A DNA stretch of 64,000 nt from Escherichia coli (GTDB lineage Bacteria; Pseudomonadota; Gammaproteobacteria; Enterobacterales; Enterobacteriaceae), in the NCBI RefSeq assembly GCF_016026235.1, contig NZ_CP065613.1, one strand, 5' to 3'. The position numbers were made by a program, and so were the translations under genes. The notes under the pieces were generated by a model that saw only the letters and a program-made list of their open reading frames with translations, made no database searches and was not told the origin of the DNA. Every line of letters begins with the position of its first letter. Position 1 is the first letter of the stretch. Positions 1 to 64,000 of this stretch are shown here, piece by piece.

Positions 1-4624
<4,624 letters not shown>

Positions 4625-6827: not shown

Positions 6828-7832
6828 ATGAAATTTCTGGTTACGGGAGCTGCTGGCTTTATCGGTTTCTATATAAGTAAACGGCTTCTTGCAGCTGGTC
6901 ATCAGGTTGTAGGCATTGACAACTTAAATGATTATTACGATGTCAACCTCAAACAAACACGACTTGATTTACTCAAGCACGACAATTTCAGTTTTTATAA
7001 AATTGACCTGGCCGATCGCGAGAAAATGGCGGTACTGTTTGCAGACGAGCGGTTCGATCGCGTAATAAACCTCGCTGCGCAAGCCGGTGTACGTTACTCC
7101 CTTGAAAATCCCAATGCATATGCAGATGCAAACCTGATTGGATTCCTGAACGTACTGGAAGGATGTCGCCATAATAATGTTCAGCATCTACTCTACGCTT
7201 CCTCCAGTTCTGTTTATGGCATGAACCGCAAGATGCCTTTCTCTACAGATGACTCTGTAGATCATCCTGTTTCGCTTTATGCAGCAACTAAAAAAGCGAA
7301 TGAACTCATGGCCCATACCTATTCTCATTTGTATGGCTTACCGACCACAGGGCTGCGTTTCTTTACGGTTTATGGTCCATGGGGACGTCCGGATATGGCA
7401 CTATTTAAATTCACTAAAGCCATGCTGGAAGGTAAAAGCATTGATGTTTACAACTTCGGCAAAATGAAGCGTGATTTTACTTATATTGATGATATTGCCG
7501 AAACTATTATTCGCTTACAGGATGTTATTCCAGAAAAAGATCCACAGTGGGCTGTAGAAACAGGCTCGCCTGCAACAAGTTCAGCACCATATCGTGTCTA
7601 TAACATTGGTAATAGTTCGCCTGTAGAGTTGATGGACTATATCAATGCGTTAGAAGAGGCTCTGGGTATTGAAGCCAACAAAAATATGATGCCTCTCCAA
7701 CCCGGTGATGTACTGGAAACCAGTGCTGATACAAAAGCACTGTATGACGTAATAGGATTCAAACCCGAAACGTCAGTTAAAGAGGGGGTAAAGAACTTTG
7801 TAGAATGGTATCGTAACTTCTATAAAGTTTGA
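6828..7832 (+). CDS. gla: UDP-glucuronate 4-epimerase (NAD-dependent SDR)
   Basis: 334 aa; GAAGFIG Rossmann motif, YAATKKANE catalytic YxxxK; close resemblance to Gla/LpsL-type UDP-GlcA 4-epimerases as recalled. Confidence 0.85.
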   Translation: MKFLVTGAAGFIGFYISKRLLAAGHQVVGIDNLNDYYDVNLKQTRLDLLKHDNFSFYKIDLADREKMAVLFADERFDRVINLAAQAGVRYSLENPNAYADANLIGFLNVLEGCRHNNVQHLLYASSSSVYGMNRKMPFSTDDSVDHPVSLYAATKKANELMAHTYSHLYGLPTTGLRFFTVYGPWGRPDMALFKFTKAMLEGKSIDVYNFGKMKRDFTYIDDIAETIIRLQDVIPEKDPQWAVETGSPATSSAPYRVYNIGNSSPVELMDYINALEEALGIEANKNMMPLQPGDVLETSADTKALYDVIGFKPETSVKEGVKNFVEWYRNFYKV

Positions 7833-7848
7833 TTTTACAAAACCATAA

Positions 7849-7880
7849 GAAAAGGCCCTAATTTATTAGGGCCTTTTCTT
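7849..7880. terminator. Bidirectional terminator between convergent gla and ugd
   Basis: Perfect hairpin aaaaggccctaa / ttagggcctttt with A-run on one side and T-run on the other. Confidence 0.75.
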
Positions 7881-7897
7881 AGAATGAAACAAAATAA

Positions 7898-9064
7898 TTA
7901 ATCATTGCCAAACAAGTCGCGAGTATAAACTTTATCTGCTACATCAGCCAGATCGGCAGACATACGGTTAGAAATAATAACATCAGCTTCTTGTTTGAAT
8001 GCATCCAAATCACGTACCACGCGCGACCGGAAAAAATCGTCCTCTTTCATCGCTGGCTCATAAACGATTACAGGAACGCCTTTCGCCTTGATTCGCTTCA
8101 TAATACCCTGAATCGAGGAAGCACGAAAATTGTCTGAACCACTCTTCATAATCAAACGATAGACGCCAACAACTTTCGGTTTACGTGCAAGGATAGAATC
8201 GGCAATAAAGTCTTTTCGCGTGCGGTTGGCATCAACAATTGCCGAAATCAGATTATTCGGCACAGATTGATAGTTTGCCAGTAACTGCTTGGTATCTTTC
8301 GGCAGACAATAACCTCCATAACCAAATGACGGATTGTTGTAGTGATTACCGATACGCGGATCAAAGCAAACCCCCTCAATAATCTGGCGGGAATTAAGCC
8401 CCAGACTTTCAGCATAACTATCTAGTTCATTGAAATAAGCTACACGCATCGCCAGATAGGTGTTGGCAAAAAGTTTAATCGCCTCAGCTTCCGTTGAGTC
8501 AGTAAACAACGTTGGAATATCTTGCTTAATAGCACCTTCTTGTAATAATGCTGCAAAACGTTCAGCGCGTTCAGACTGCTCACCAATCACAATGCGTGAT
8601 GGATGCAAGTTATCATAAAGTGCTTTCCCTTCGCGTAAAAACTCCGGCGAAAAGATCACATTTTCAATACCAAATCGTTCTTTAATGGACTCTGTAAAAC
8701 CAACAGGGATAGTTGATTTTATAATCATTACAGCGTTGGGATTAATTTCTGTCACATCACGGATGACCGCTTCCACGCTTGAGGTATTAAAATAATTTGT
8801 TTTTGGGTCATAATCGGTAGGCGTGGCAATAATAACGTAATCGGCATTTTTATACGCGTCATACTTATCTGTCGTAGCGCGGAAATTGAGCTCTTTAGTC
8901 GCCAGATACTCTTCAATCTCCTTATCAACAATCGGTGACAGCTTCTTGTTAAGCATGTCCACTTTGGCCTGAACGATATCCAATGCCACCACTTCGTGAT
9001 TTTGCGCAATCAGAATACCATTTGAAAGACCAACATAACCTGTACCTGAAATTGTTATTTTCAT
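7898..9064 (-). CDS. ugd: UDP-glucose 6-dehydrogenase
   Basis: ORF 7898-9091; start placed at [16 protein letters not shown] (NAD-binding GxGxxG); 388 aa from that start. Confidence 0.93.
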
Positions 9065-9267
9065 TAGCTCTGACTTCTTCCGATTAAACATTTAGAGTGG
9101 TCATTAATCCACCACCATAACTTCATCTACTGCGGGATTTTTAACGCTGATGTAGATGAACAGTCAAGGCAGCGATCCTGCTGTGCGGCTCTGTATTATA
9201 TCTCTTTTTTAACCCAAAATTATAAAAAAAGTCCATAACCTGCCGCTTTGTATAATAAAAAAGCCCG

Positions 9268-9279
9268 GAGGATTTCTCC
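9268..9279. repeat. Target-site duplication (left) of the IS element: GAGGATTTCTCC
   Basis: Identical 12-mer directly abuts both ends of the element (also at 10572-10583). Confidence 0.75.
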
Positions 9280-10571
9280 TGAGGGATCCCCAGAAAATTT
9301 AGTAAACCATTATCATATTGGTATACCGTTGCTGTAGAACTTTCAGCCCTGCGTCAAGTGACAGTGTGTTTAGTATGAGTGGAGAATGTCGAATCACATT
9401 CTCCGCCAGTTTTAATAACGAGATGACTCGCCTGTGCTTCACTGTATTTGCCTGATATTTATGATGTATCCCTTTGTTTTCCAGGCTGAAACCGCTTAAC
9501 CACATAATGATACTGGCTAATGTTGCGATCAGACTCAATACCGTGACCCGCCCGGATGAATGACTGGCACCAAACCGTAGTCCAAATCCCCAGCGAGGAT
9601 TTTTTTCATCCCTGAAATTTTGCTCAATTTGCATTCTACGGCTGTATAATTTCATTACCTGTTTTGGCGAGAACTCAGTACTGTTTGTGAAAATAAACCA
9701 TGGTGATTTCCCGGCAGTACGAGCTTTAGCCGTCACCGATGGTCTGGTTGCTCTTTCCTTCGAGCGTTTAAATCTACGACCTTTAGGCTTACTTTTATAA
9801 AGATAAAAATGCCCTTCATGTTGTGCATTTTTATCTCGACCCAGCAGGCCTTCACCTAAATAAATTGCTGTCGTTGATGCTTTTGTGCCTGAGTCCGACA
9901 CCTTTTCCCAGCCATTACCAACATTGTAATAATGATTGCCCAGTACCCGGCAAATATAGGTCCAGCCACGGGAGCGGAGCTGTTGGAACCATCGCCCCTG
10001 AAAACCGGCATCTGTAATAACAATGACATCAGTCCCGGGGGAAAAGCACTCAGCAAGCGATTCCAGAAAACGCTCATGTACATCTGCATTCGCTGTCTGT
10101 GATGATGGAACGACACAACTCATCAACGGTAAAGAACGCCCGTCACATGCCAGGCTTGCCCGCAAAAGCTGAAAACGAGAGGCATGATAAGCACTCCAGT
10201 CAATGAGTATCACAACACGAGACATTCCCCGCGTAATCTTTTGGGTAATTCGCTGAAAAATGGTGGAAACCTCATTTTGCAAATGTCGATTCCCCAACAG
10301 TCGATCCACCCGCTTTATTTTGTTTTTAACTGATGCCGTACCGGTTAAATGACGCCCGATACTGGTAAGTGTGAGGGAAGCGCCATTTATTACAGCATTA
10401 GTTGCGTCAATCAGTGATTTTTGACGGTAAAGATGCAAAGGGGCCAGTATATTGTTAAGGAAATTTTGGCATAATGAACGTGCAGGCATAGTGGTGATCT
10501 CCTTGAAATTGTTAGCACAATCAATTAGATCACATCTCACTATGCCTGTCTTGTTTTCTGGGGATTCCTCA
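9280..10571 (-). mobile_element. IS4-family (IS10-like) insertion sequence, about 1.29 kb, apparently intact
   Basis: Terminal inverted repeats TGAGGGATCCCCAGAAAA (9280-9297) and TGAGGAATCCCCAGAAAA (reverse complement of 10554-10571), 17/18 match; single transposase ORF; flanked by 12-bp direct repeats. Confidence 0.85.
9299..10489 (-). CDS. DDE transposase, IS4 family (IS10-like)
   Basis: ORF 9299-10594 extends beyond the IS end, so start placed at internal MPARSL (10489) preceded by AAGGAG; motifs KIKRVDRLLGNRHL, ITDAGF, YSRRMQIEQNFRDEK, HKYQANTVKHRRV parallel the IS10 transposase as recalled. Confidence 0.85.
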   Translation of the reverse strand: MPARSLCQNFLNNILAPLHLYRQKSLIDATNAVINGASLTLTSIGRHLTGTASVKNKIKRVDRLLGNRHLQNEVSTIFQRITQKITRGMSRVVILIDWSAYHASRFQLLRASLACDGRSLPLMSCVVPSSQTANADVHERFLESLAECFSPGTDVIVITDAGFQGRWFQQLRSRGWTYICRVLGNHYYNVGNGWEKVSDSGTKASTTAIYLGEGLLGRDKNAQHEGHFYLYKSKPKGRRFKRSKERATRPSVTAKARTAGKSPWFIFTNSTEFSPKQVMKLYSRRMQIEQNFRDEKNPRWGFGLRFGASHSSGRVTVLSLIATLASIIMWLSGFSLENKGIHHKYQANTVKHRRVISLLKLAENVIRHSPLILNTLSLDAGLKVLQQRYTNMIMVY

Positions 10572-54898: not shown

Positions 54899-57800
54899 AT
54901 GAGCAAACAATCACAGCATGTATTAATTGCCCTGCCCCACCCGCTGCTTCACCTGGTCAGTTTAGGTTTAGTCTCGTTTATCTTTACCCTTTTCTCGCTT
55001 GAGCTTTCGCAGTTTGGCACCCAACTCGCCCCACTGTGGTTCCCGACGTCCATCATGATGGTGGCGTTTTATCGCCATGCCGGGCGCATGTGGCCGGGAA
55101 TTGCGCTGAGCTGTTCGCTGGGAAATATCGCCGCATCCATCCTGCTTTTTTCCACCAGCTCGCTGAACATGACCTGGACGACCATCAATATTGTTGAAGC
55201 CGTGGTCGGGGCAGTGCTGCTACGTAAATTGCTGCCGTGGTATAACCCCTTGCAAAATCTGGCTGACTGGCTGCGTCTGGCACTCGGCAGCGCCATTGTT
55301 CCGCCTCTGTTGGGGGGTGTTCTGGTTGTCCTGCTGACGCCCAGAGACGATCCTCTCAGGGCATTTTTGATATGGGTACTGTCAGAATCCATCGGCGCTC
55401 TGGCACTGGTGCCGCTGGGATTGTTATTTAAACCACACTATCTGCTGCGCCATCGCAACCCACGGTTGCTTTTTGAGTCGCTGCTCACGTTAGCCATCAC
55501 ACTGACGTTAAGCTGGCTTTCGATGCTGTATCTGCCGTGGCCTTTTACTTTCATTATTGTGCTGTTGATGTGGAGCGCCGTGCGCCTGCCACGAATGGAA
55601 GCCTTTTTGATCTTCCTTACCACGGTGATGATGGTGTCGCTGATGATGGCCGCGGATCCCTCCCTGCTTGCTACGCCGCGTACGTACCTGATGAGCCATA
55701 TGCCGTGGCTACCGTTTTTGCTGATCCTGCTGCCCGCCAATATCATGACGATGGTGATGTATGCCTTTCGTACTGAACGAAAGCATATTTCCGAAAGCGA
55801 AACCCGTTTTCGGAACGCCATGGAGTATTCCGCCATCGGCATGGCTCTTGTGGGAACGGAAGGACAATGGCTGCAAGCCAATAAAGCCTTATGTCAGTTT
55901 CTCGGTTACAGTCAGGAAGAGCTGCGCGGACTCACCTTTCAGCAACTGACCTGGCCGGAGGATCTCAATAAAGATCTCCAACAGGTTGAAAAGCTGATAA
56001 GCGGTGAAATAAACACCTATTCAATGGAAAAACGCTACTACAACCGTAATGGCGATGTTGTCTGGGCGTTGCTTGCCGTCTCACTGGTGCGCCACACGGA
56101 TGGCACGCCGCTCTATTTTATCGCTCAGATTGAAGACATTAACGAGCTAAAACGCACCGAACAGGTGAATCAGCAACTGATGGAACGCATCACGCTGGCT
56201 AACGAAGCGGGCGGGATTGGCATCTGGGAGTGGGAGTTGAAGCCGAATATTTTTAGCTGGGATAAGCGGATGTTCGAGCTGTATGAAATTCCTCCACATA
56301 TCAAACCGAACTGGCAGGTGTGGTACGAGTGCGTGCTGCCGGAAGATCGCCAGCATGCCGAAAAAGTGATTCGTGATTCGTTGCAATCACGCTCGCCCTT
56401 TAAACTGGAATTTCGCATTACCGTAAAAGACGGTATTCGCCATATCCGCGCCCTCGCCAACCGGGTACTGAATAAAGAAGGCGAAGTCGAACGCCTGCTC
56501 GGCATTAATATGGATATGACTGAGGTTAAACAGCTTAACGAGGCATTGTTTCAGGAAAAAGAGCGCCTGCACATTACGCTGGACTCCATCGGCGAAGCCG
56601 TGGTCTGTATTGATATGGCAATGAAAATTACCTTTATGAATCCAGTGGCGGAGAAGATGAGAGGCTGGACGCAGGAAGAAGCATTAGGTGTTCCGCTCCT
56701 GACGGTGTTGCATATTACCTTTGGCGACAATGGTCCCCTGATGGAGAACATTTACAGTGCCGACACCTCACGTTCCGCGATTGAACAAGATGTGGTGTTG
56801 CACTGCCGGAGCGGCGGCAGCTACGACGTGCATTACAGTATTACGCCGTTAAGTACTCTGGACGGCAGCAATATTGGTTCGGTTCTGGTGATTCAGGACG
56901 TTACCGAATCACGCAAAATGCTGCGCCAGCTGAGCTACAGCGCCTCCCATGATGCACTGACGCATCTCGCCAATCGCGCCAGTTTTGAGAAACAACTGCG
57001 TATCCTGCTGCAAACGGTAAACAGTACACATCAGCGACATGCCCTGGTGTTTATCGATCTTGATCGCTTTAAAGCGGTGAATGACAGCGCCGGGCATGCG
57101 GCGGGTGACGCTTTGCTGCGCGAACTGGCGTCGTTAATGCTGAGTATGCTGCGTTCCAGCGACGTGCTGGCGCGACTCGGTGGGGATGAATTTGGTCTGC
57201 TGCTACCAGACTGTAATGTTGAAAGCGCGCGTTTTATCGCTACACGCATTATCAGTGCCGTGAATGACTATCACTTTATCTGGGAAGGACGTGTACATCG
57301 GGTAGGTGCCAGTGCCGGGATTACCTTGATTGATGACAACAATCATCAGGCGGCTGAAGTGATGTCGCAGGCTGATATCGCCTGTTATGCCTCCAAAAAT
57401 GGTGGCCGGGGCCGGGTGACGATTTACGAACCGCAGCAAGCTGCCGCACATAGCGAGCGGGCAGCGATGTCGCTTGATGAACAGTGGCGGATGATTAAAG
57501 AGAATCAGTTGATGATGATCGCCCACGGTGTCGCTTCGCCACGGATCCCGGAAGCACGTAATTTGTGGCTGATTTCACTTAAGCTCTGGAATTGCGAAGG
57601 CGAGATTATTGATGAACAAACATTTCGTCGTAGCTTCAGCGATCCGGCACTTAGCCATGCTCTTGACCGACGGGTATTCCACGATTTTTTCCAGCAGGCC
57701 GCCAAAGCGGTTGCCAGTAAAGGCATAAGCATCGCCCTCCCTCTTTCCGTTGCCGGTTTGAGTAGCGCCACGCTGGTGAATGATCTGCTTGAGCAGCTGG

Positions 57801-58216
57801 AAAATAGCCCTCTACCACCACGGTTATTACATCTGATTATTCCGGCTGAAGCGATTTTAGATCACGCAGTAAGCGTGCAAAAACTGCGGCTGGCGGGATG
57901 TCGGATAGTGCTCAGCCAGGTGGGCCGCGATCTGCAAATCTTCAACTCGCTGAAAGCGAATATGGCAGATTACCTGCTACTTGATGGTGAGTTATGCGCC
58001 AACGTGCAGGGTAATTTGATGGATGAGATGCTGATTACGATTATTCAGGGGCACGCTCAGCGACTCGGGATGAAAACCATCGCCGGGCCAGTCGTTTTAC
58101 CCTTAGTGATGGATACGCTTTCTGGCATCGGCGTCGATCTGATTTATGGTGATGTGATTGCCGATGCCCAACCGCTGGATTTGCTGGTGAATAGCAGTTA
58201 TTTCGCGATTAACTGA
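54899..58216 (+). CDS. dgcE: Multidomain c-di-GMP protein (membrane MASE1-like N-terminus, PAS domains, GGDEF, degenerate EAL)
   Basis: 1105 aa; polytopic N-terminus, PAS-like repeats, GGDEF motif RLGGDEFGLL; position after udk (yegE). Confidence 0.9.
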   Translation: MSKQSQHVLIALPHPLLHLVSLGLVSFIFTLFSLELSQFGTQLAPLWFPTSIMMVAFYRHAGRMWPGIALSCSLGNIAASILLFSTSSLNMTWTTINIVEAVVGAVLLRKLLPWYNPLQNLADWLRLALGSAIVPPLLGGVLVVLLTPRDDPLRAFLIWVLSESIGALALVPLGLLFKPHYLLRHRNPRLLFESLLTLAITLTLSWLSMLYLPWPFTFIIVLLMWSAVRLPRMEAFLIFLTTVMMVSLMMAADPSLLATPRTYLMSHMPWLPFLLILLPANIMTMVMYAFRTERKHISESETRFRNAMEYSAIGMALVGTEGQWLQANKALCQFLGYSQEELRGLTFQQLTWPEDLNKDLQQVEKLISGEINTYSMEKRYYNRNGDVVWALLAVSLVRHTDGTPLYFIAQIEDINELKRTEQVNQQLMERITLANEAGGIGIWEWELKPNIFSWDKRMFELYEIPPHIKPNWQVWYECVLPEDRQHAEKVIRDSLQSRSPFKLEFRITVKDGIRHIRALANRVLNKEGEVERLLGINMDMTEVKQLNEALFQEKERLHITLDSIGEAVVCIDMAMKITFMNPVAEKMRGWTQEEALGVPLLTVLHITFGDNGPLMENIYSADTSRSAIEQDVVLHCRSGGSYDVHYSITPLSTLDGSNIGSVLVIQDVTESRKMLRQLSYSASHDALTHLANRASFEKQLRILLQTVNSTHQRHALVFIDLDRFKAVNDSAGHAAGDALLRELASLMLSMLRSSDVLARLGGDEFGLLLPDCNVESARFIATRIISAVNDYHFIWEGRVHRVGASAGITLIDDNNHQAAEVMSQADIACYASKNGGRGRVTIYEPQQAAAHSERAAMSLDEQWRMIKENQLMMIAHGVASPRIPEARNLWLISLKLWNCEGEIIDEQTFRRSFSDPALSHALDRRVFHDFFQQAAKAVASKGISIALPLSVAGLSSATLVNDLLEQLENSPLPPRLLHLIIPAEAILDHAVSVQKLRLAGCRIVLSQVGRDLQIFNSLKANMADYLLLDGELCANVQGNLMDEMLITIIQGHAQRLGMKTIAGPVVLPLVMDTLSGIGVDLIYGDVIADAQPLDLLVNSSYFAIN

Positions 58217-58229
58217 GGGAGCGTTTGCC

Positions 58230-58258
58230 CATTGCCTGATGCGACATATCAGGCCTAC
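58230..58258. repeat. REP element between dgcE and alkA
   Basis: gcctgatgcgacatatcaggcctac palindrome overlapping the alkA stop. Confidence 0.55.
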
Positions 58259-59112
58259 AATTCGTCCGTTCCGTCTGGTTGCCAGCCTTCCGTATACCAG
58301 ATATGCAACAGCGCATAAGAACGCCAGGGCTTCCAGCGCTCGGCATAACGGCGGATTTGTGCCGGTGTCATCCCCGGAAATCGCTGTTTAATCAGATAAT
58401 CATCCGGCAGAAAAACATCTTTCGCCTGCCAGCCACGCAAAGCGAAATAATTCGCCGTCCAGCGCCCAATACCCGGAAAAGTTTGCAGCGTTTTCATCGC
58501 CTGCTCCACATCGCCCGGAATTGTCATTGGTAAGCTGCCCTCCAGCGCCGCATTTGCCAGATGAATCAGTGCCTCTGCCCGTTTCAACGGCATGCCTAAC
58601 GCTTTTAATGCCTGCGGGTCGGCTGCTGCCAGCCGCTGAGGCGTGGGGAAGCAGATATACTCCGGAAAATCATCCAGCCGTTCGCCATAAAGCTGTACAA
58701 CTTTGGCAGTCAATTTTGCCGCCATCGCCACGCTCACCAGTTGGCCTAAAATCGCCCGCACACCCTGCTCAAAAGCATCAATACAGCCGGGTAAACGCAA
58801 TCCGGGCCGCGCCGCGCCTAACTTGCCCAACGCACCGTTAACAATCTGCGGGTTACATTGCAGATCAAACAGGCGGCTCATTTTCGCCAGACACTCAGCG
58901 GCAACGGGTTCTAAACCTGCACTTAAATTTATGTGCAGAGTATGGCGGGCTATATCCGGAATAGCAGTCACCACGCCGCGATATTCGCCCACCGCCAGAC
59001 TACGGGCATAATAATCCTCAGCGACCGTTTCCACACCACTCACTGCACGGGCGGCGAGAAATCCCAACATCCACGACCAGTCATACGGCGGCTGCCAGTT
59101 CAGGGTATACAT
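58255..59112 (-). CDS. alkA: 3-methyladenine DNA glycosylase II
   Basis: 285 aa; MYTLNWQPPYDWSWMLGFLAARAV start; HhH glycosylase. Confidence 0.93.
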   Translation of the reverse strand: MYTLNWQPPYDWSWMLGFLAARAVSGVETVAEDYYARSLAVGEYRGVVTAIPDIARHTLHINLSAGLEPVAAECLAKMSRLFDLQCNPQIVNGALGKLGAARPGLRLPGCIDAFEQGVRAILGQLVSVAMAAKLTAKVVQLYGERLDDFPEYICFPTPQRLAAADPQALKALGMPLKRAEALIHLANAALEGSLPMTIPGDVEQAMKTLQTFPGIGRWTANYFALRGWQAKDVFLPDDYLIKQRFPGMTPAQIRRYAERWKPWRSYALLHIWYTEGWQPDGTDEL

Positions 59113-59245
59113 CGCATCTCCTTATTCATCCGCTTTCAGCATAAACGTTATTCAGACGCTACGCTTTGCTTTCATATTCCGGTTGTCGCGACGGCAACAT
59201 TTCGCTAAAGTCACGCCCCTTCTTCACCGGCATGGGGATTAATTC

Positions 59246-60586
59246 GTGTTTATTGGTTTTGATTACGGTACAGCAAACTGTTCAGTGGCGGTCATGCGTG
59301 ACGGTAAACCGCAATTACTGAAAATGGAAAACGACAGCACGCTGCTGCCTTCAATGCTTTGCGCGCCAACGCGTGAAGCAGTAAGTGAATGGCTGTACCG
59401 CCATCATGATGTTCCGGCAGACGACGATGAAACGCAGGCGCTGTTACGTCGGGCGATTCGTTATAACCGCGAAGAAGATATCGATGTTACGGCGAAAAGC
59501 GTGCAGTTCGGTCTTTCCTCACTGGCACAGTACATTGATGATCCAGAAGAAGTGTGGCTTGTGAAATCACCAAAATCGTTCCTCGGTGCCAGCGGCTTAA
59601 AACCGCAGCAGGTAGCGCTGTTTGAGGATCTGGTCTGCGCAATGATGTTGCACATTCGCCAGCAGGCGCAGGCGCAGCTGCCAGAAGCGATTACTCAGGC
59701 GGTGATTGGTCGCCCGATCAACTTCCAGGGGCTGGGCGGCGATGAAGCAAACGCCCAGGCGCAAGGGATTCTGGAACGCGCGGCGAAGCGTGCCGGATTC
59801 AGGGACGTGGTATTCCAGTACGAGCCGGTCGCGGCTGGGCTGGATTACGAGGAAGAAAAACGGGTGCTGGTGGTGGATATCGGCGGTGGTACGACTGACT
59901 GTTCATTGCTGCTGATGGGACCGCAGTGGCGTTCGCGTCTCGATCGTGAAGCCAGCCTGCTGGGTCACAGTGGTTGTCGTATTGGCGGTAACGATCTGGA
60001 TATCGCCCTGGCGTTTAAAAACCTGATGCCACTGCTGGGTATGGGTGGCGAAACCGAAAAAGGCATCGCCCTGCCGATCCTGCCGTGGTGGAATGCGGTT
60101 GCCATCAACGACGTACCTGCGCAGAGTGATTTCTACAGTAGTACCAACGGTCGTCTGCTTAACGATCTGGTACGCGATGCCCGCGAACCGGAAAAAGTGG
60201 CCCTGTTACAGAAAGTCTGGCGTCAGCGTTTAAGCTATCGCCTAGTGCGTAGCGCAGAAGAGTGCAAAATTGCTCTTTCAAGCGTAGCGGAAACCCGCGC
60301 CTCACTGCCGTTTATCAGCAATGAACTGGCTACGCTGATTAGCCAGCGAGGGCTGGAAAGCGCCCTCAGCCAGCCACTGGCGCGGATTCTGGAACAGGTG
60401 CAACTGGCCCTGGATAACGCCCAGGAAAAACCGGACGTTATCTACCTGACCGGCGGTAGCGCCCGTTCTCCGCTGATTAAAAAAGCGCTGGCAGAACAGT
60501 TGCCGGGCATTCCGATTGCAGGCGGCGATGACTTTGGCTCCGTCACCGCCGGGCTGGCACGCTGGGCGGAAGTGGTGTTTCGTTAA
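59246..60586 (+). CDS. yegD: Hsp70-family (actin-like ATPase) protein
   Basis: 446 aa; FIGFDYGTANCSVAV and DIGGGTTDCSLL Hsp70 phosphate-binding motifs. True start may lie slightly upstream at a non-ATG codon. Confidence 0.88.
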   Translation: MFIGFDYGTANCSVAVMRDGKPQLLKMENDSTLLPSMLCAPTREAVSEWLYRHHDVPADDDETQALLRRAIRYNREEDIDVTAKSVQFGLSSLAQYIDDPEEVWLVKSPKSFLGASGLKPQQVALFEDLVCAMMLHIRQQAQAQLPEAITQAVIGRPINFQGLGGDEANAQAQGILERAAKRAGFRDVVFQYEPVAAGLDYEEEKRVLVVDIGGGTTDCSLLLMGPQWRSRLDREASLLGHSGCRIGGNDLDIALAFKNLMPLLGMGGETEKGIALPILPWWNAVAINDVPAQSDFYSSTNGRLLNDLVRDAREPEKVALLQKVWRQRLSYRLVRSAEECKIALSSVAETRASLPFISNELATLISQRGLESALSQPLARILEQVQLALDNAQEKPDVIYLTGGSARSPLIKKALAEQLPGIPIAGGDDFGSVTAGLARWAEVVFR

Positions 60587-60598
60587 TTGAAAAATGGC

Positions 60599-62548
60599 TC
60601 AGCAGCGGCTTAAATCTGCCTGCGCCTGAGCCAGTTTTTCTGCTGCCTGACGTAACGGTTCCATCAACGGCATGGTCCGTGCTGGAGCATGAAGGCGGAA
60701 TCGCTGCAACTCTGTCGCGCCGACTGTCAACGCCGATTCCAGCCGATGTCGTTTGGCGGTCATTTTCGCCATTACCGCTTGTCTGTCTGCTGGCGTTATC
60801 GCTTCATTCGGCCTGAACACAAAACGGCGTTCACAGCTCGCTTTCCAGTCGATAACCGCCTGGGTCAGATGGTCGCCAAACCCTTTCACTTGCTTAACAC
60901 CACGACGGGTAACATCTGCCGCTGTTTCAATACCAAAGGACCGTAACGCCGCTTTACGCGCAGGGCCAACGCCGGGAATAGAGGCAACATCAATAAAAAA
61001 TCCCTCCAGAAACTTCTGCTTCTGCCGTTCCCTTGCGGTGTCGTGAAGTGCTGCCAGAGCGCGTTTCTCTTCTTCCGGTAACCCGAGAATTTCGTCTTTC
61101 ATTTTTTCGAGCATCGCCCGTTTGGCGATAAAACCTTCCAGCCCGCCCAACTGTTGGATCTGGTTGACTAAATGGTCATAGTCCATTTTCGCGCGATTAA
61201 ATGCCTCACGGCGTTGCTGGATTTCTGCTTTATAAGCTTTGCTTGTCAGACTGCCAATAATCCAGATAGCCGCCAGCACAGGAACCAAAATAATATAACG
61301 CGGTTCTGCCTGAAGGCCGCAAAGCAACAGCGATAACGCTGACAGTGCGATCTCAATCAGAATGATGTATTCGCGCCGTAACAGGCCTAAAGGAAGCGGC
61401 CGGCCAGTCGGTTGGAAATGATCGGGTAATGGCAATTGCAATGCTGGCGGTGCTACTGACGCCATCACCATCGCCCAGACTTTCGCCAGCACAAAATCAC
61501 CGCTGGTGGTAATGACCTCTTCGCCGAGATCAATAAAATAGATAACGCCTTGATTATCCAGCGCACACCACGGGCAGTCAGTCAAATGAGCGGGGTAAAC
61601 ATGCATTGCTGAAACGGTACATTTCTTTAAATGTTGGCGTAGAGAGTCCAGTGCCGCTACCCACGCTTTAGCCGTCGGACGCCCGGTTGCCACGCCACTT
61701 TCCGTGAATGCCTGCTGAAACATGGCTTCAACATCACTCGGTAACATCGACAGCGGAATCGATCGTGGCGGCGGTTTTAAACCACGCCGCTGATTATCTG
61801 ACGCGTAGGCATAACGGAAATGGGCAATATCCGTCTCCAGCGCATTCCCCGCATCAGAGATAAGCGGCACACCGGAATAAGGATGCCGGCCACCAAACAA
61901 GACGTGAAAAATCAGCAAGGCAAGGCCAAAATTATCGTGATTTTCTGTGCGTTCAAAGCCGACAAATGACGACAAGGTTTGTAGCTCTGGCGGCGTAAAA
62001 TGCGACACGCCGACTTCGCATAAATGCAGTGTGCCATTGGCGTTAATCTGAAAGGAGTCGCTATCAATCAACACCACTTTGCTGTCGCGACCTACCATAA
62101 AGCTGTTCTGGTTTACGTCACCCACGACGTGCCCGTGCTCGTGAACCGTAGCAAAAGATAAAGCAATATTGCGCGCAACATAGAGTAGAAAATCCCACGC
62201 ATAATGAGGGTAACTCTGGCGACGATGTGCCGGGCTATAGATCATATGAATCGGTTCTTTACCAGAAACTTTTGGCATCATAAAACCGATAACTTTTCCG
62301 CCTCGTCCACCGTGAAGCGTTGCCTGCGGCCAGGCGACATAATTCAACAACTGCGCGTCAGCTGTCGCAGCCATAAAGGCAAGTTTGTCCTGTTTTAAGG
62401 CGGGTGGCGGCGTGTGATAAATCTTGGCGACGCTATCGACAAACTCATTGATATCATAAACCGCGCCTTCACCGCCTTTGCCCAGTTCACGGCCTGGCGT
62501 AACGCACTCACCAGTAGCAGTATATAAAGTGGGTTTCATGGTAACCAC
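60599..62548 (-). CDS. yegI: Hanks-type Ser/Thr protein kinase with TM segment and C-terminal domain
   Basis: 649 aa; kinase catalytic-loop-like HGHVVGDVNQNSFMV and DFG-equivalent region; position. Confidence 0.88.
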   Translation of the reverse strand: MVTMKPTLYTATGECVTPGRELGKGGEGAVYDINEFVDSVAKIYHTPPPALKQDKLAFMAATADAQLLNYVAWPQATLHGGRGGKVIGFMMPKVSGKEPIHMIYSPAHRRQSYPHYAWDFLLYVARNIALSFATVHEHGHVVGDVNQNSFMVGRDSKVVLIDSDSFQINANGTLHLCEVGVSHFTPPELQTLSSFVGFERTENHDNFGLALLIFHVLFGGRHPYSGVPLISDAGNALETDIAHFRYAYASDNQRRGLKPPPRSIPLSMLPSDVEAMFQQAFTESGVATGRPTAKAWVAALDSLRQHLKKCTVSAMHVYPAHLTDCPWCALDNQGVIYFIDLGEEVITTSGDFVLAKVWAMVMASVAPPALQLPLPDHFQPTGRPLPLGLLRREYIILIEIALSALSLLLCGLQAEPRYIILVPVLAAIWIIGSLTSKAYKAEIQQRREAFNRAKMDYDHLVNQIQQLGGLEGFIAKRAMLEKMKDEILGLPEEEKRALAALHDTARERQKQKFLEGFFIDVASIPGVGPARKAALRSFGIETAADVTRRGVKQVKGFGDHLTQAVIDWKASCERRFVFRPNEAITPADRQAVMAKMTAKRHRLESALTVGATELQRFRLHAPARTMPLMEPLRQAAEKLAQAQADLSRC

Positions 62549-63297
62549 AGCGCCAGTGCCAACGTTTTATCATCATCCGTACGCTCGTTTACCGCCGGGC
62601 TGGACAAAAACTGCTTTAACAATTCAGGTAATAAATCGAGTTGTTCCTGCGTTGCTGACGCCAGTCCATTGAAAAACGGGGTAAAGAAAGGCACATGCGG
62701 AGAATTATCCAACATATTTAACGCCAGTCGCTGGATACCATCCGTAAATGCTGCAACTTTATGCACACGCTCAGTGCTGGTGAAAGTTTCCAGTCTGGAA
62801 ACGGCATCTTCATCGGTAATGAAGTGCGTCATATTGGCATATTCACCCACCATCGGCGTAAGCGGCAATTGCAGACCGTGACCAAAATCCACCACCACGC
62901 CGCCATCGCCAATCTGCATAATCAAGGTGCCATTAGCCGATGAAATCAATCCCAGAAACGTGCAGGCAAAATCGCGAACTGCTAATTCTTTGGCTTCCGC
63001 CTCGGCAAAAAGTCGCTGACGAACGGTCAGCACAATATCCGTGGCGAGGATATCATTAAGCCCCAATTCCCCACCCTGCACTTTTTGCGACATATAAGCC
63101 ATCGCTTCATTGACGGCGAGCGTCGCGCCTTCTCCTCCCTGCGAAACGCTACCTGCGCCATCAGCAAGGAACATCACCAGTAATGGCTGCTGGTCATTTA
63201 GCCAGGCAACCTGCATCTGGCAGGCATCCTGGCAAGGCAAGTCCGCGCTGATGTGCGACGTTCCAACAGCGGATGCATAAACCAGACGCCAGCTCAC
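62536..63297 (-). CDS. pphC: PP2C-family protein phosphatase
   Basis: 253 aa; PP2C-like acidic motifs (FLADGAG, FTDG); stop overlaps the yegI start. Confidence 0.85.
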
Positions 63298-63953
63298 ACT
63301 GACGTCCAGCCTTTTGGCGCTTCCAGCACAACTTCCGTTCCCGGCGTGGAGCGGGAAACCGAACGCAGCGAACTGGATAACCAGCTAAACAGTTCACGGA
63401 ATTGTAATCCTTGCAGAGGCAAAGGCTGACGAACGCTGATTTGTGCCAGAGTCTTCATATCCGCCCCCTGAACACCGATGGAAAAGAAAGCAAACCTTTT
63501 ATCTTCTTCCCCCCGAAACACTTTGTTGGCTGCAGCCTGCCACTCATCGGTTGGTGCACCATCGGTAATCAGGAAAATCCACGGGCGATAATACGAAATA
63601 CCATTTGCACGATACTCACGTTTCCGCTCCTCTACCATATCCAGGGCTTTGGTAATGGCCGCACCCATTGGTGTATCGCCCTGGGCAAACAGGATGGGCG
63701 GAAAAAAATTAGCGGCGCTGGTAAAGGGTTGTTCCACATGCACCGGGCCGAACGTCACAATGCCGAGTTCCACTCTTTTTAAAGCCAGCGAATCGGCAAG
63801 CAGCTCATCGCGAAAGGTAACCAATCCGGTGTTAAGTTCATTAATAGGTCTGCCACTCATCGAGCCAGAAACATCCAGCAGCAGAATGCAGGGGCAACGT
63901 GGTTCCGGGTTACTGGCAAAATCGCTGGTGGCAAACGTGATTTGTTCGCTCAT
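63294..63953 (-). CDS. yegL: von Willebrand factor A domain protein
   Basis: 219 aa; vWA MIDAS-like motif DVSGSMSG; overlaps the pphC start by 4 bp. Confidence 0.85.
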
Positions 63954-64000
63954 AAGAAATCCTTTCTTAGAGAATTATTGAGGTCCGGTATCATACCGAC

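Follow-up and report, generated by a model that had tools for sequence, protein, structure and literature searches.

The yegL-pphC-yegI operon of Escherichia coli is a conserved vWA, phosphatase and kinase triad of the TerY-P architectural class

TerY-P systems (the class of Anantharaman et al. 2012) are defined as triads in which a TerY-like vWA protein is joined by a PP2C phosphatase and by a Ser/Thr kinase, the latter often with a zinc ribbon at its C-terminus; in the literature they are hypothesized to be phosphorylation switches that sense metal and have links to DNA-processing systems. One variant, whose kinase has an OB fold, is a validated anti-phage system (Gao et al. 2020), and TerY-P systems are reported to protect against T7-like phages and Autographiviridae. 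Better known are the pairs of Hanks-type kinases and PP2C phosphatases, such as PknB/PstP of Mycobacterium tuberculosis and PrkC/PrpC of Bacillus subtilis, in which autophosphorylation of the activation loop is reversed by the cognate PP2C enzyme. Here we analyzed the yegL-pphC-yegI operon of E. coli, located on the minus strand of a 64,000-nucleotide stretch of contig NZ_CP065613.1 (assembly GCF_016026235.1; this whole stretch is referred to as the window), and compared it with these systems. By architecture the operon is a member of the TerY-P class, but it falls outside the validated defence family.

The operon is already known and annotated, and two of its three products have been biochemically characterized by Rajagopalan and Dworkin (J Bacteriol 2018; FEBS Lett 2020; bioRxiv 10.1101/303594 and 10.1101/819920). 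YegI is an inner-membrane two-pass protein with both ends in the cytoplasm that autophosphorylates on serines. This activity requires K39, D141, the DSD loop and S162, is abolished by the K39D and D141N mutations, prefers Mn2+ over Mg2+ and follows second-order kinetics. PphC is a Mn2+-dependent PP2C-type phosphatase that dephosphorylates phosphorylated YegI and has 6 of the 8 canonical PP2C residues. The genes studied by these authors are the same as those in the window and do not differ from them in function; the window carries the uninterrupted, REL606-type operon, with an ATGA overlap and a YegI of 646 amino acids. The zinc ribbon and the helix-hairpin-helix (HhH) module of YegI described below, YegL, and membership of the TerY-P class are not discussed in their papers.

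An original prediction, made from the sequence of the window alone, had proposed an operon of three minus-strand genes, yegL, pphC and yegI, at positions 60599-63953. The open reading frames (ORFs) lie exactly there (Table 1), and both the names and the operon reading agree with E. coli VL40, to which the locus is 100% identical over 3601 bp and in which the genes are annotated yegL, pphC and yegI (RefSeq products vWA domain protein, PP2C family phosphatase and protein kinase YegI, respectively). The predicted 4-bp overlap of yegL with pphC is present as GTGA. The 13-bp overlap predicted between pphC and yegI is obtained only with an alternative in-frame GTG start at 62548, which gives the longest ORF, and becomes a 4-bp ATGA at the annotated ATG (62539). 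The ATG is the start in RefSeq and in the published expression construct, and the corresponding M1 is invariant in all 33 aligned homologues. The locus had also rightly been called conserved rather than novel: besides being already annotated, the operon was matched in 5416 of 5426 complete E. coli genomes, where it occupies one locus and nearly always has 95-99% identity. Measured against two divergent Escherichia copies, the ratio of nonsynonymous to synonymous substitution rates (dN/dS) was 0.06-0.08 for yegL, 0.13-0.16 for pphC and 0.11-0.16 for yegI. All three are therefore functional genes under purifying selection.

The assignment to the TerY-P class rests on the adjacent and co-oriented genes for a TerY-like vWA protein, a PP2C phosphatase and a Ser/Thr kinase, and on the predicted zinc ribbon that follows the kinase domain (C307, H313, C322 and C325, all invariant). 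A triad with the same gene order is found among the ter genes of a Klebsiella pneumoniae plasmid (NZ_LR890625.1), and its homology to the E. coli triad is detectable in all three products (vWA, 27% identity and E 2e-18; PP2C, E 4e-6; kinase C-lobe and CxxC motif, E 1e-4). The plasmid vWA protein (346 aa, with a TerY-C domain) and PP2C protein (577 aa) are larger than those of E. coli, and the 499-aa plasmid kinase, unlike YegI, has neither a transmembrane (TM) hairpin nor an HhH module. Moreover, ter genes surround the plasmid triad. Near the free-standing E. coli triad neither ter genes nor restriction or DNA-processing genes were found, and such genes adjoin some of its relatives (restriction-modification (RM) systems, Mrr, GajA, AbiH and SNase) while many others lack them.

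The validated anti-phage system is more distant. The TerY-P system of E. coli G3/10 (Gao et al. 2020; the copy used by Stokar-Avihail et al.) was identified from a supplementary table and then located in RefSeq (positions 7200-10459 of our locus L092). It has the same gene order and products of similar sizes (277, 239 and 561 aa), but its vWA protein aligns with YegL only in the MIDAS (metal ion-dependent adhesion site) segments (E 0.006), its kinase aligns with YegI only in the catalytic loop (E 0.015), and its phosphatase does not align with PphC (E 1.2). The C-terminus of the anti-phage kinase is reported to be an OB fold, whereas that of YegI consists of a TM hairpin, a probable coiled coil and an HhH module. 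The G3/10 system is also rare, being present in 4-5 of the 5426 complete E. coli genomes and adjoining a type I RM system and an IS5 element, whereas yegL-pphC-yegI is part of the core genome. With so little or no resemblance in sequence to the validated system, homology gives no ground for assigning the defence phenotype to the E. coli triad. PADLOC made no TerY-P call for any protein of the triad, a result that is uninformative since the ter-plasmid triad used as a control was not called either; likewise, no NCBIfam model matched even the RefSeq-named G3/10 TerY-P proteins at E ≤ 1e-3, so this search is uninformative as well. We found no published phage-protection test of yegL-pphC-yegI in the literature. 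Strains of the G3/10 type thus carry two vWA-phosphatase-kinase triads that are architecturally similar and barely related.

YegL matches the Pfam VWA family, as predicted (E 6e-10, 40 bits against a cut-off of 23.8), and its MIDAS is complete, with D27, S29, S31 and, further downstream in the coding sequence, T94 and D131 invariant in 76 homologues. In tblastn searches YegL shared 31-35% identity with the vWA genes of ter plasmids (E values down to 6e-16). The alignment with the TerY-C protein of the ter-plasmid triad covers 190 residues and takes in a C-terminal W-x-[ST]-x-S helix, which in YegL is a conserved Ser-rich helix common to TerY (W191-L-S193-x-S195...S200-x-S202). YegL was the most conserved member of the triad in all 67 loci compared; mean identities across loci were 65% (YegL), 51% (kinase domain), 43% (PphC) and 38% (C-terminus of YegI).

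The second gene product was also recognized without difficulty: PphC matches the Pfam family PP2C_2 (PF13672) over residues 11-220 (E 3e-50, 171 bits against a cut-off of 24), in agreement with the predicted PP2C-type phosphatase, and residues D24, D46-G47, D131-G132, D186-G187 and D242-D243 are invariant in 77 sequences. Within the operon, pphC stands out as an allelic hot spot. Compared with K-12, 19 of 253 PphC residues differ, against 3 of 219 in YegL, and in E. coli E69 the synonymous divergence (dS) of pphC (positions 2980-3738 of locus L020) is 0.75 while that of the flanking yegL and yegI genes is 0.28-0.29. This difference in dS suggests recombination, or old alleles, at pphC alone.

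YegI is a protein kinase despite having no Pfam match of its own. The original prediction had named a Pfam domain search as the check on its three assignments, and this search supported the vWA and PP2C domains but gave no direct match for the kinase: E. coli YegI did not match Pkinase (PF00069) even at E ≤ 10, and neither Pfam nor NCBIfam returned anything usable for its kinase domain. Weak and partial matches were to the kinase domains of LanL/LanKC, PD-T4-6 and MkoA, and to TTK/S6K at E 0.017-0.9. This negative was overturned by 4 lines of evidence. YegI belongs to a large family (8820 representatives of 50% clusters at E ≤ 1e-3), and 57 of 61 diverse homologues with 32-50% identity to YegI matched Pkinase, with a best E value of 6.4e-12. 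An AlphaFold2 (AF2) model of residues 1-345 built on an alignment of 115 sequences reached a pLDDT of 97 and a pTM of 0.94, and in Foldseek searches it gave at least 1989 PDB matches at E ≤ 1e-3, the top ones being BRAF, LCK, PknB, PknA, Aurora B and EGFR (E values down to 3e-11, TM scores 0.6-0.73; M. tuberculosis PknB 5u94, E 1.4e-10 and TM score 0.70). This model replaced a first one based on 33 close homologues, in which the pLDDT of the kinase domain was below 50 over most of residues 19-260 and fold matches were weak. The catalytic residues are conserved and, finally, kinase activity has been assayed in the published work.

In the same 115 sequences, the Gly-rich loop G20xG22G23E24G25xV27 (GxGGEGxV) is invariant or nearly so, as are K39 (subdomain II), D141 (catalytic Asp), D159 (metal-binding Asp), the TPPE185 motif holding the Glu of APE, D202xFG (subdomain IX) and R287-P288; G22, K39, D141, D159, E185 and R287 are fully invariant. 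YegI differs from classical Hanks-type kinases in having VGD instead of HRD and D-S/C-D-S instead of DFG throughout the family, and we could not identify a conserved acidic residue in the alpha-C region of these sequences. The predicted Hanks-type kinase therefore stands by fold, homologues, invariant residues and published assays, and not by a direct Pkinase match or by canonical HRD and DFG motifs. These deviations agree with those reported by Rajagopalan and Dworkin. The residue five positions after the catalytic-loop Asp is Asn in 90 of the 115 relatives; only the E. coli branch has Ser (Ser146), with Asn145 one position earlier. Rajagopalan and Dworkin also reported that the Arg of subdomain XI is replaced by Gly (G286). 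Since R287-P288 is invariant in the family and lies at the expected position of this Arg (R287, window positions 61679-61681), the alignment suggests that this statement probably reflects a misalignment by one residue and that the subdomain XI Arg is R287.

The part of YegI that follows the kinase domain sets it further apart from PknB and PrkC, which share its kinase fold. The invariant CHCC motif forms two short strands and a helix in the AF2 model, resembling a zinc-ribbon knuckle, and aligns with the CPYC motif of the ter-plasmid triad kinase; sequence and model thus point to a zinc ribbon, with putative zinc binding. Unlike PknB and PrkC, YegI lacks an extracellular PASTA or other sensor domain and is anchored by a TM hairpin that leaves both ends in the cytoplasm. 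Membrane anchoring had been predicted correctly, but through one segment, and there are two helices, as in the published topology. The long cytoplasmic helices behind the hairpin would form a dimerization element, consistent with the second-order kinetics of autophosphorylation. The tail contains a predicted (HhH)2 DNA-binding module. It was detected as HHH_5 in E. coli YegI (E 1e-3) and in 12 of the 61 homologues (best E 3e-6), its nearest solved sequences in profile searches are the thumb HhH motifs of REV1 and Pol IV (E 0.02-0.03), and database entries name YegI "helix-hairpin-helix domain-containing protein" or [quoted passage not shown]. The zinc-ribbon and HhH additions, together with an obligatory vWA partner gene, distinguish YegI and PphC from classical Hanks/PP2C pairs. 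Neither module, nor the TerY-P connection, had been part of the original prediction.

Table 1. Position of the genes, overlaps, motifs and protein regions of the yegL-pphC-yegI operon in the window (CDS, coding sequence; aa, amino acids).
Feature	Position	Strand	Description and evidence
yegL CDS	63294..63953	minus	219 aa, TerY-like vWA protein; ORF and RefSeq annotation
pphC (yegK) CDS	62536..63297	minus	253 aa, PP2C-type phosphatase
yegI CDS	60599..62539	minus	646 aa, membrane Ser/Thr kinase
GTGA overlap, yegL stop/pphC start	63294..63297	minus	4 bp, translational coupling; sequence and annotation
ATGA overlap, pphC stop/yegI start	62536..62539	minus	4 bp; sequence, annotation, published construct, homologue alignment
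MIDAS DxSxS motif of YegL (D27, S29, S31)	63861..63875	minus	Invariant in 76 homologues
Protein-kinase domain of YegI, residues ~1-300	61640..62539	minus	AF2, Foldseek, Pkinase matches of homologues, invariant residues
CHCC zinc-ribbon-like motif of YegI (C307, H313, C322, C325)	61565..61621	minus	Invariant in 115 sequences
TM hairpin of YegI, TM1 391-409, TM2 415-433	61241..61369	minus	Hydropathy; AF2 helices 389-408 and 413-465; published PhoA-LacZ topology
Cytoplasmic long helices/probable coiled coil of YegI, residues ~435-511	61007..61237	minus	AF2, pLDDT ~85-95
Predicted (HhH)2 module of YegI, residues ~515-570	60830..60997	minus	Pfam HHH_5, profile matches, database names
C-terminal helical tail of YegI, residues ~580-646	60602..60802	minus	AF2; carries the published autophosphorylation sites S602 and S644

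To place the triad among its relatives, one genome per species was scanned; 518 relatives were found and the best 80 loci were kept. The order vWA, PP2C, kinase was colinear in 71 of the 74 loci with enough upstream DNA for it to be assessed. These triads come from Beta-, Gamma-, Alpha- and Deltaproteobacteria, Actinobacteria, Planctomycetes, Acidobacteria, Cyanobacteria, Bacteroidetes, Synergistetes, Verrucomicrobia and Methanoregula archaea. A recurrent neighbour or conserved fourth gene was sought beside the triad and none was found: the largest cluster of neighbours covered 7 of 86 loci and no Pfam family occurred in more than 3 of the 149 nearest neighbours. Within Enterobacteriaceae, identity falls from at least 91% in Escherichia straight to 63% in Klebsiella spallanzanii/aerogenes, and is about 60% in Betaproteobacteria. 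This drop indicates, on sequence identity, an old horizontal acquisition by Escherichia. Because gene order is kept across phyla, no neighbour recurs and identity has this gap in Enterobacteriaceae, the triad is a self-contained, mobile three-gene module. Some relatives lie beside type I RM systems, Mrr, Gabija GajA, AbiH, KAP NTPase, BrxR, JetB, SNase, Tn7-like or conjugation genes.

Several loci depart from the common arrangement. In three loci of Burkholderiales type (L002, 5932-6474; L011, 5917-6501; L014, 8155-8478) the vWA gene is immediately preceded by a co-oriented gene for a staphylococcal-nuclease-like (SNase) protein, before which L002 and L011 have an ORF of about 70 aa; the SNase-like gene is absent in E. 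coli and may encode a lineage-specific accessory nuclease. In two Thiotrichales loci (L050, 10001-11014; L060, 5884-6882) the kinase lacks a C-terminus of the YegI type and no vWA or PP2C gene was detected with it, and in another locus (L015) insertions of several kb split the triad between yegL and pphC and inside yegI.

Within E. coli, the junction of pphC and yegI is polymorphic. K-12 carries yegJ between the two genes, on a segment of about 785 bp (positions 7980-8765 of the K-12 locus, L006) that takes the place of about 50 bp at the junction (window positions 62495-62544). The insertion changes the last two residues of PphC and alters the N-terminus of YegI, which in K-12 is MKTNIKVFTSTGELT instead of the other 15 residues present here. 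The yegJ segment was found in 1906-1934 of the 5426 complete E. coli genomes (~35%). Thus, the insertion is a common polymorphism and not a K-12 peculiarity, although the literature limits it to "K strains". The strain of the window therefore differs from K-12 in the absence of yegJ and in the N-terminus of YegI, besides the PphC substitutions given above, and its uninterrupted operon is the form seen in all other genera.

Our favoured reading, which we hold with about even confidence, is that the operon encodes a self-contained phospho-switch of three translationally coupled components, which is of the TerY-P class and has an output directed at DNA. Clustering or dimerization of YegI at the membrane, possibly on DNA held by the HhH module, would lead to trans-autophosphorylation, with dimerization occurring through the cytoplasmic helices. 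PphC would reset YegI by removing the phosphates, and YegL would be the regulated partner or effector, acting through ligand binding at its MIDAS or through phosphorylation of its Ser-rich C-terminal helix. This output would serve to answer damaged or foreign DNA, as part of stress or defence and not of general housekeeping signalling. In a genome-wide overproduction screen YegL, with a strong phenotype, and independently YegI (at least 5-fold) raised endogenous DNA damage. A more specific version, which we regard as speculative and on balance improbable, is a TerY-P-class DNA-surveillance switch domesticated in the core genome: DNA that is damaged or entering the cell would be bound at the inner membrane by the HhH module of YegI, clustering would activate the kinase, PphC would restrain it, and YegL would be an effector acting on DNA, which would explain the genotoxicity of overproducing YegL alone.

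Several observations weigh against the phospho-switch reading. DNA damage upon overproduction can be non-specific, and membrane proteins and unrelated proteins also scored in the screen. Expression of the triad is barely detectable in laboratory culture, and no substrate, stimulus or phenotype has been reported for it; that its targets are poorly defined, as the original prediction stated, thus holds. The HHH_5 match of E. coli YegI scores below the Pfam gathering score (20 vs 27 bits), and the PDB matches of this module are marginal. DNA binding by the HhH module, zinc binding and the interaction of YegL with YegI are predictions. Many triads of relatives lie among ordinary metabolic genes. 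Finally, the yegJ insertion uncouples pphC from yegI in ~35% of complete genomes, and tight coupling of these two genes is therefore dispensable.

Other explanations of the operon have to be considered. The triad could be a bona fide anti-phage system with the same function as the TerY-P system described by Gao et al. (2020), in which infection activates the kinase and the phage is blocked directly or by abortive infection. Its domain types and gene order are those of the validated G3/10 system and of the ter-plasmid triad; its distribution across phyla is patchy and identity between E. coli, Klebsiella and Betaproteobacteria is as high as 60-75%, a pattern that implies horizontal transfer; a number of relatives are found in defence islands or near mobile elements; overproduction is genotoxic; and protection by TerY-P systems against T7-like phages and Autographiviridae has been reported. 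However, the three proteins align only marginally or not at all with those of the validated system, YegI ends in an HhH module and not in the OB fold of the defence kinases, and the triad is a fixed component of the core genome at one locus, unlike the validated system. In addition, TerY-P defence was shown in E. coli MG1655, which already has yegL-pphC-yegJ-yegI, and the native copy therefore does not give TerY-P protection in that strain. The missing PADLOC call also counts on this side, although its control deprives it of weight. Altogether, we consider equivalence to the anti-phage system rather doubtful. The operon might instead encode an ordinary kinase/phosphatase pair, like PrkC/PrpC or PknB/PstP, that tunes many cytoplasmic housekeeping proteins, with YegL as a co-transcribed bystander. 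YegI and PphC act on each other in vitro as classical pairs do, the triad is core in E. coli, phosphosites in this species are many and known kinases few, and yegI mutations rise in the long-term evolution experiment. A bystander role for YegL is difficult to reconcile with a vWA gene that stays with the pair in 71 of 74 loci and is its most conserved companion in 67 of 67. YegI moreover has a zinc ribbon and an HhH module but no extracytoplasmic sensor domain, expression during growth is close to zero, and the cassette moves horizontally and, as the fall from 91% to 63% identity shows, is absent from close relatives expected to share housekeeping genes. This makes a general housekeeping role quite unlikely.

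Two further possibilities concern metal sensing and loss of function. In the former, the MIDAS of YegL would report the divalent-metal status of the cytoplasm in a metal- or tellurite-type stress response, and the kinase/phosphatase pair would relay the signal. YegL is homologous to the TerY-type vWA proteins of tellurite-resistance plasmids, its MIDAS is invariant, YegI and PphC both depend on Mn2+, and the literature proposes such a metal-sensing phospho-switch for TerY-P triads that adjoin ter genes. But MIDAS sites of vWA and integrin I domains usually use the metal to bind a protein ligand and not to sense metal. There are also no ter genes near the E. coli triad, TerD-family domains are not among the most frequent Pfam families of the 149 nearest neighbours elsewhere, and no metal phenotype has been reported, so we judge a metal sensor very unlikely. 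Alternatively, the operon could be a cryptic, decaying relic of the old horizontal acquisition that has no current function, as might be read from the lack of any expression condition in the literature and from the interruption by yegJ in ~35% of genomes. Yet the operon is intact in at least 5400 of 5426 genomes, the dN/dS of all three genes is 0.06-0.16, the catalytic, MIDAS and zinc-ribbon residues are all intact and the proteins are active in vitro according to published work. A relic, to which we assign hardly any probability, is largely refuted by the signal of selection.

In E. coli the triad stands alone between yegD and ibsA, with alkA and mdtABC also nearby. yegI and the convergent Hsp70-like gene yegD end 12 bp apart (window positions 60584-60601) with no terminator-like hairpin between them, and a recent paper reports that yegD is induced upon yegJ overexpression. 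yegD was rejected as a functional partner of the triad because it does not adjoin it outside Escherichia. Upstream in the window, dgcE (encoding a 1105-aa diguanylate cyclase) and alkA occupy 54899-59112. Promoter and terminator scans of the operon gave hits at chance level only, the operon promoter lying beyond the end of the window; an Rfam search of 58000-64000 gave no match, and repeats at the locus were limited to short chance matches. The G+C content of the locus is an unremarkable 0.515, against 0.473 for the whole window, which therefore contains low-GC material elsewhere.

YegI is one of only about eight Ser/Thr/Tyr protein kinases known in E. coli, and the analysis gives it a new context: a predicted zinc ribbon, coiled coil and HhH module in the kinase, a triad whose order is kept across phyla, and a link to the TerY-P class. 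The unit of function is the triad and not the kinase/phosphatase pair, and within it YegL is under the strongest constraint. In its behaviour the cassette resembles a mobile, free-standing module, kin to TerY-P defence by architecture and only marginally by sequence. If the DNA-surveillance version of the switch were true, almost every E. coli would carry an innate-immunity or DNA-surveillance device in this operon.

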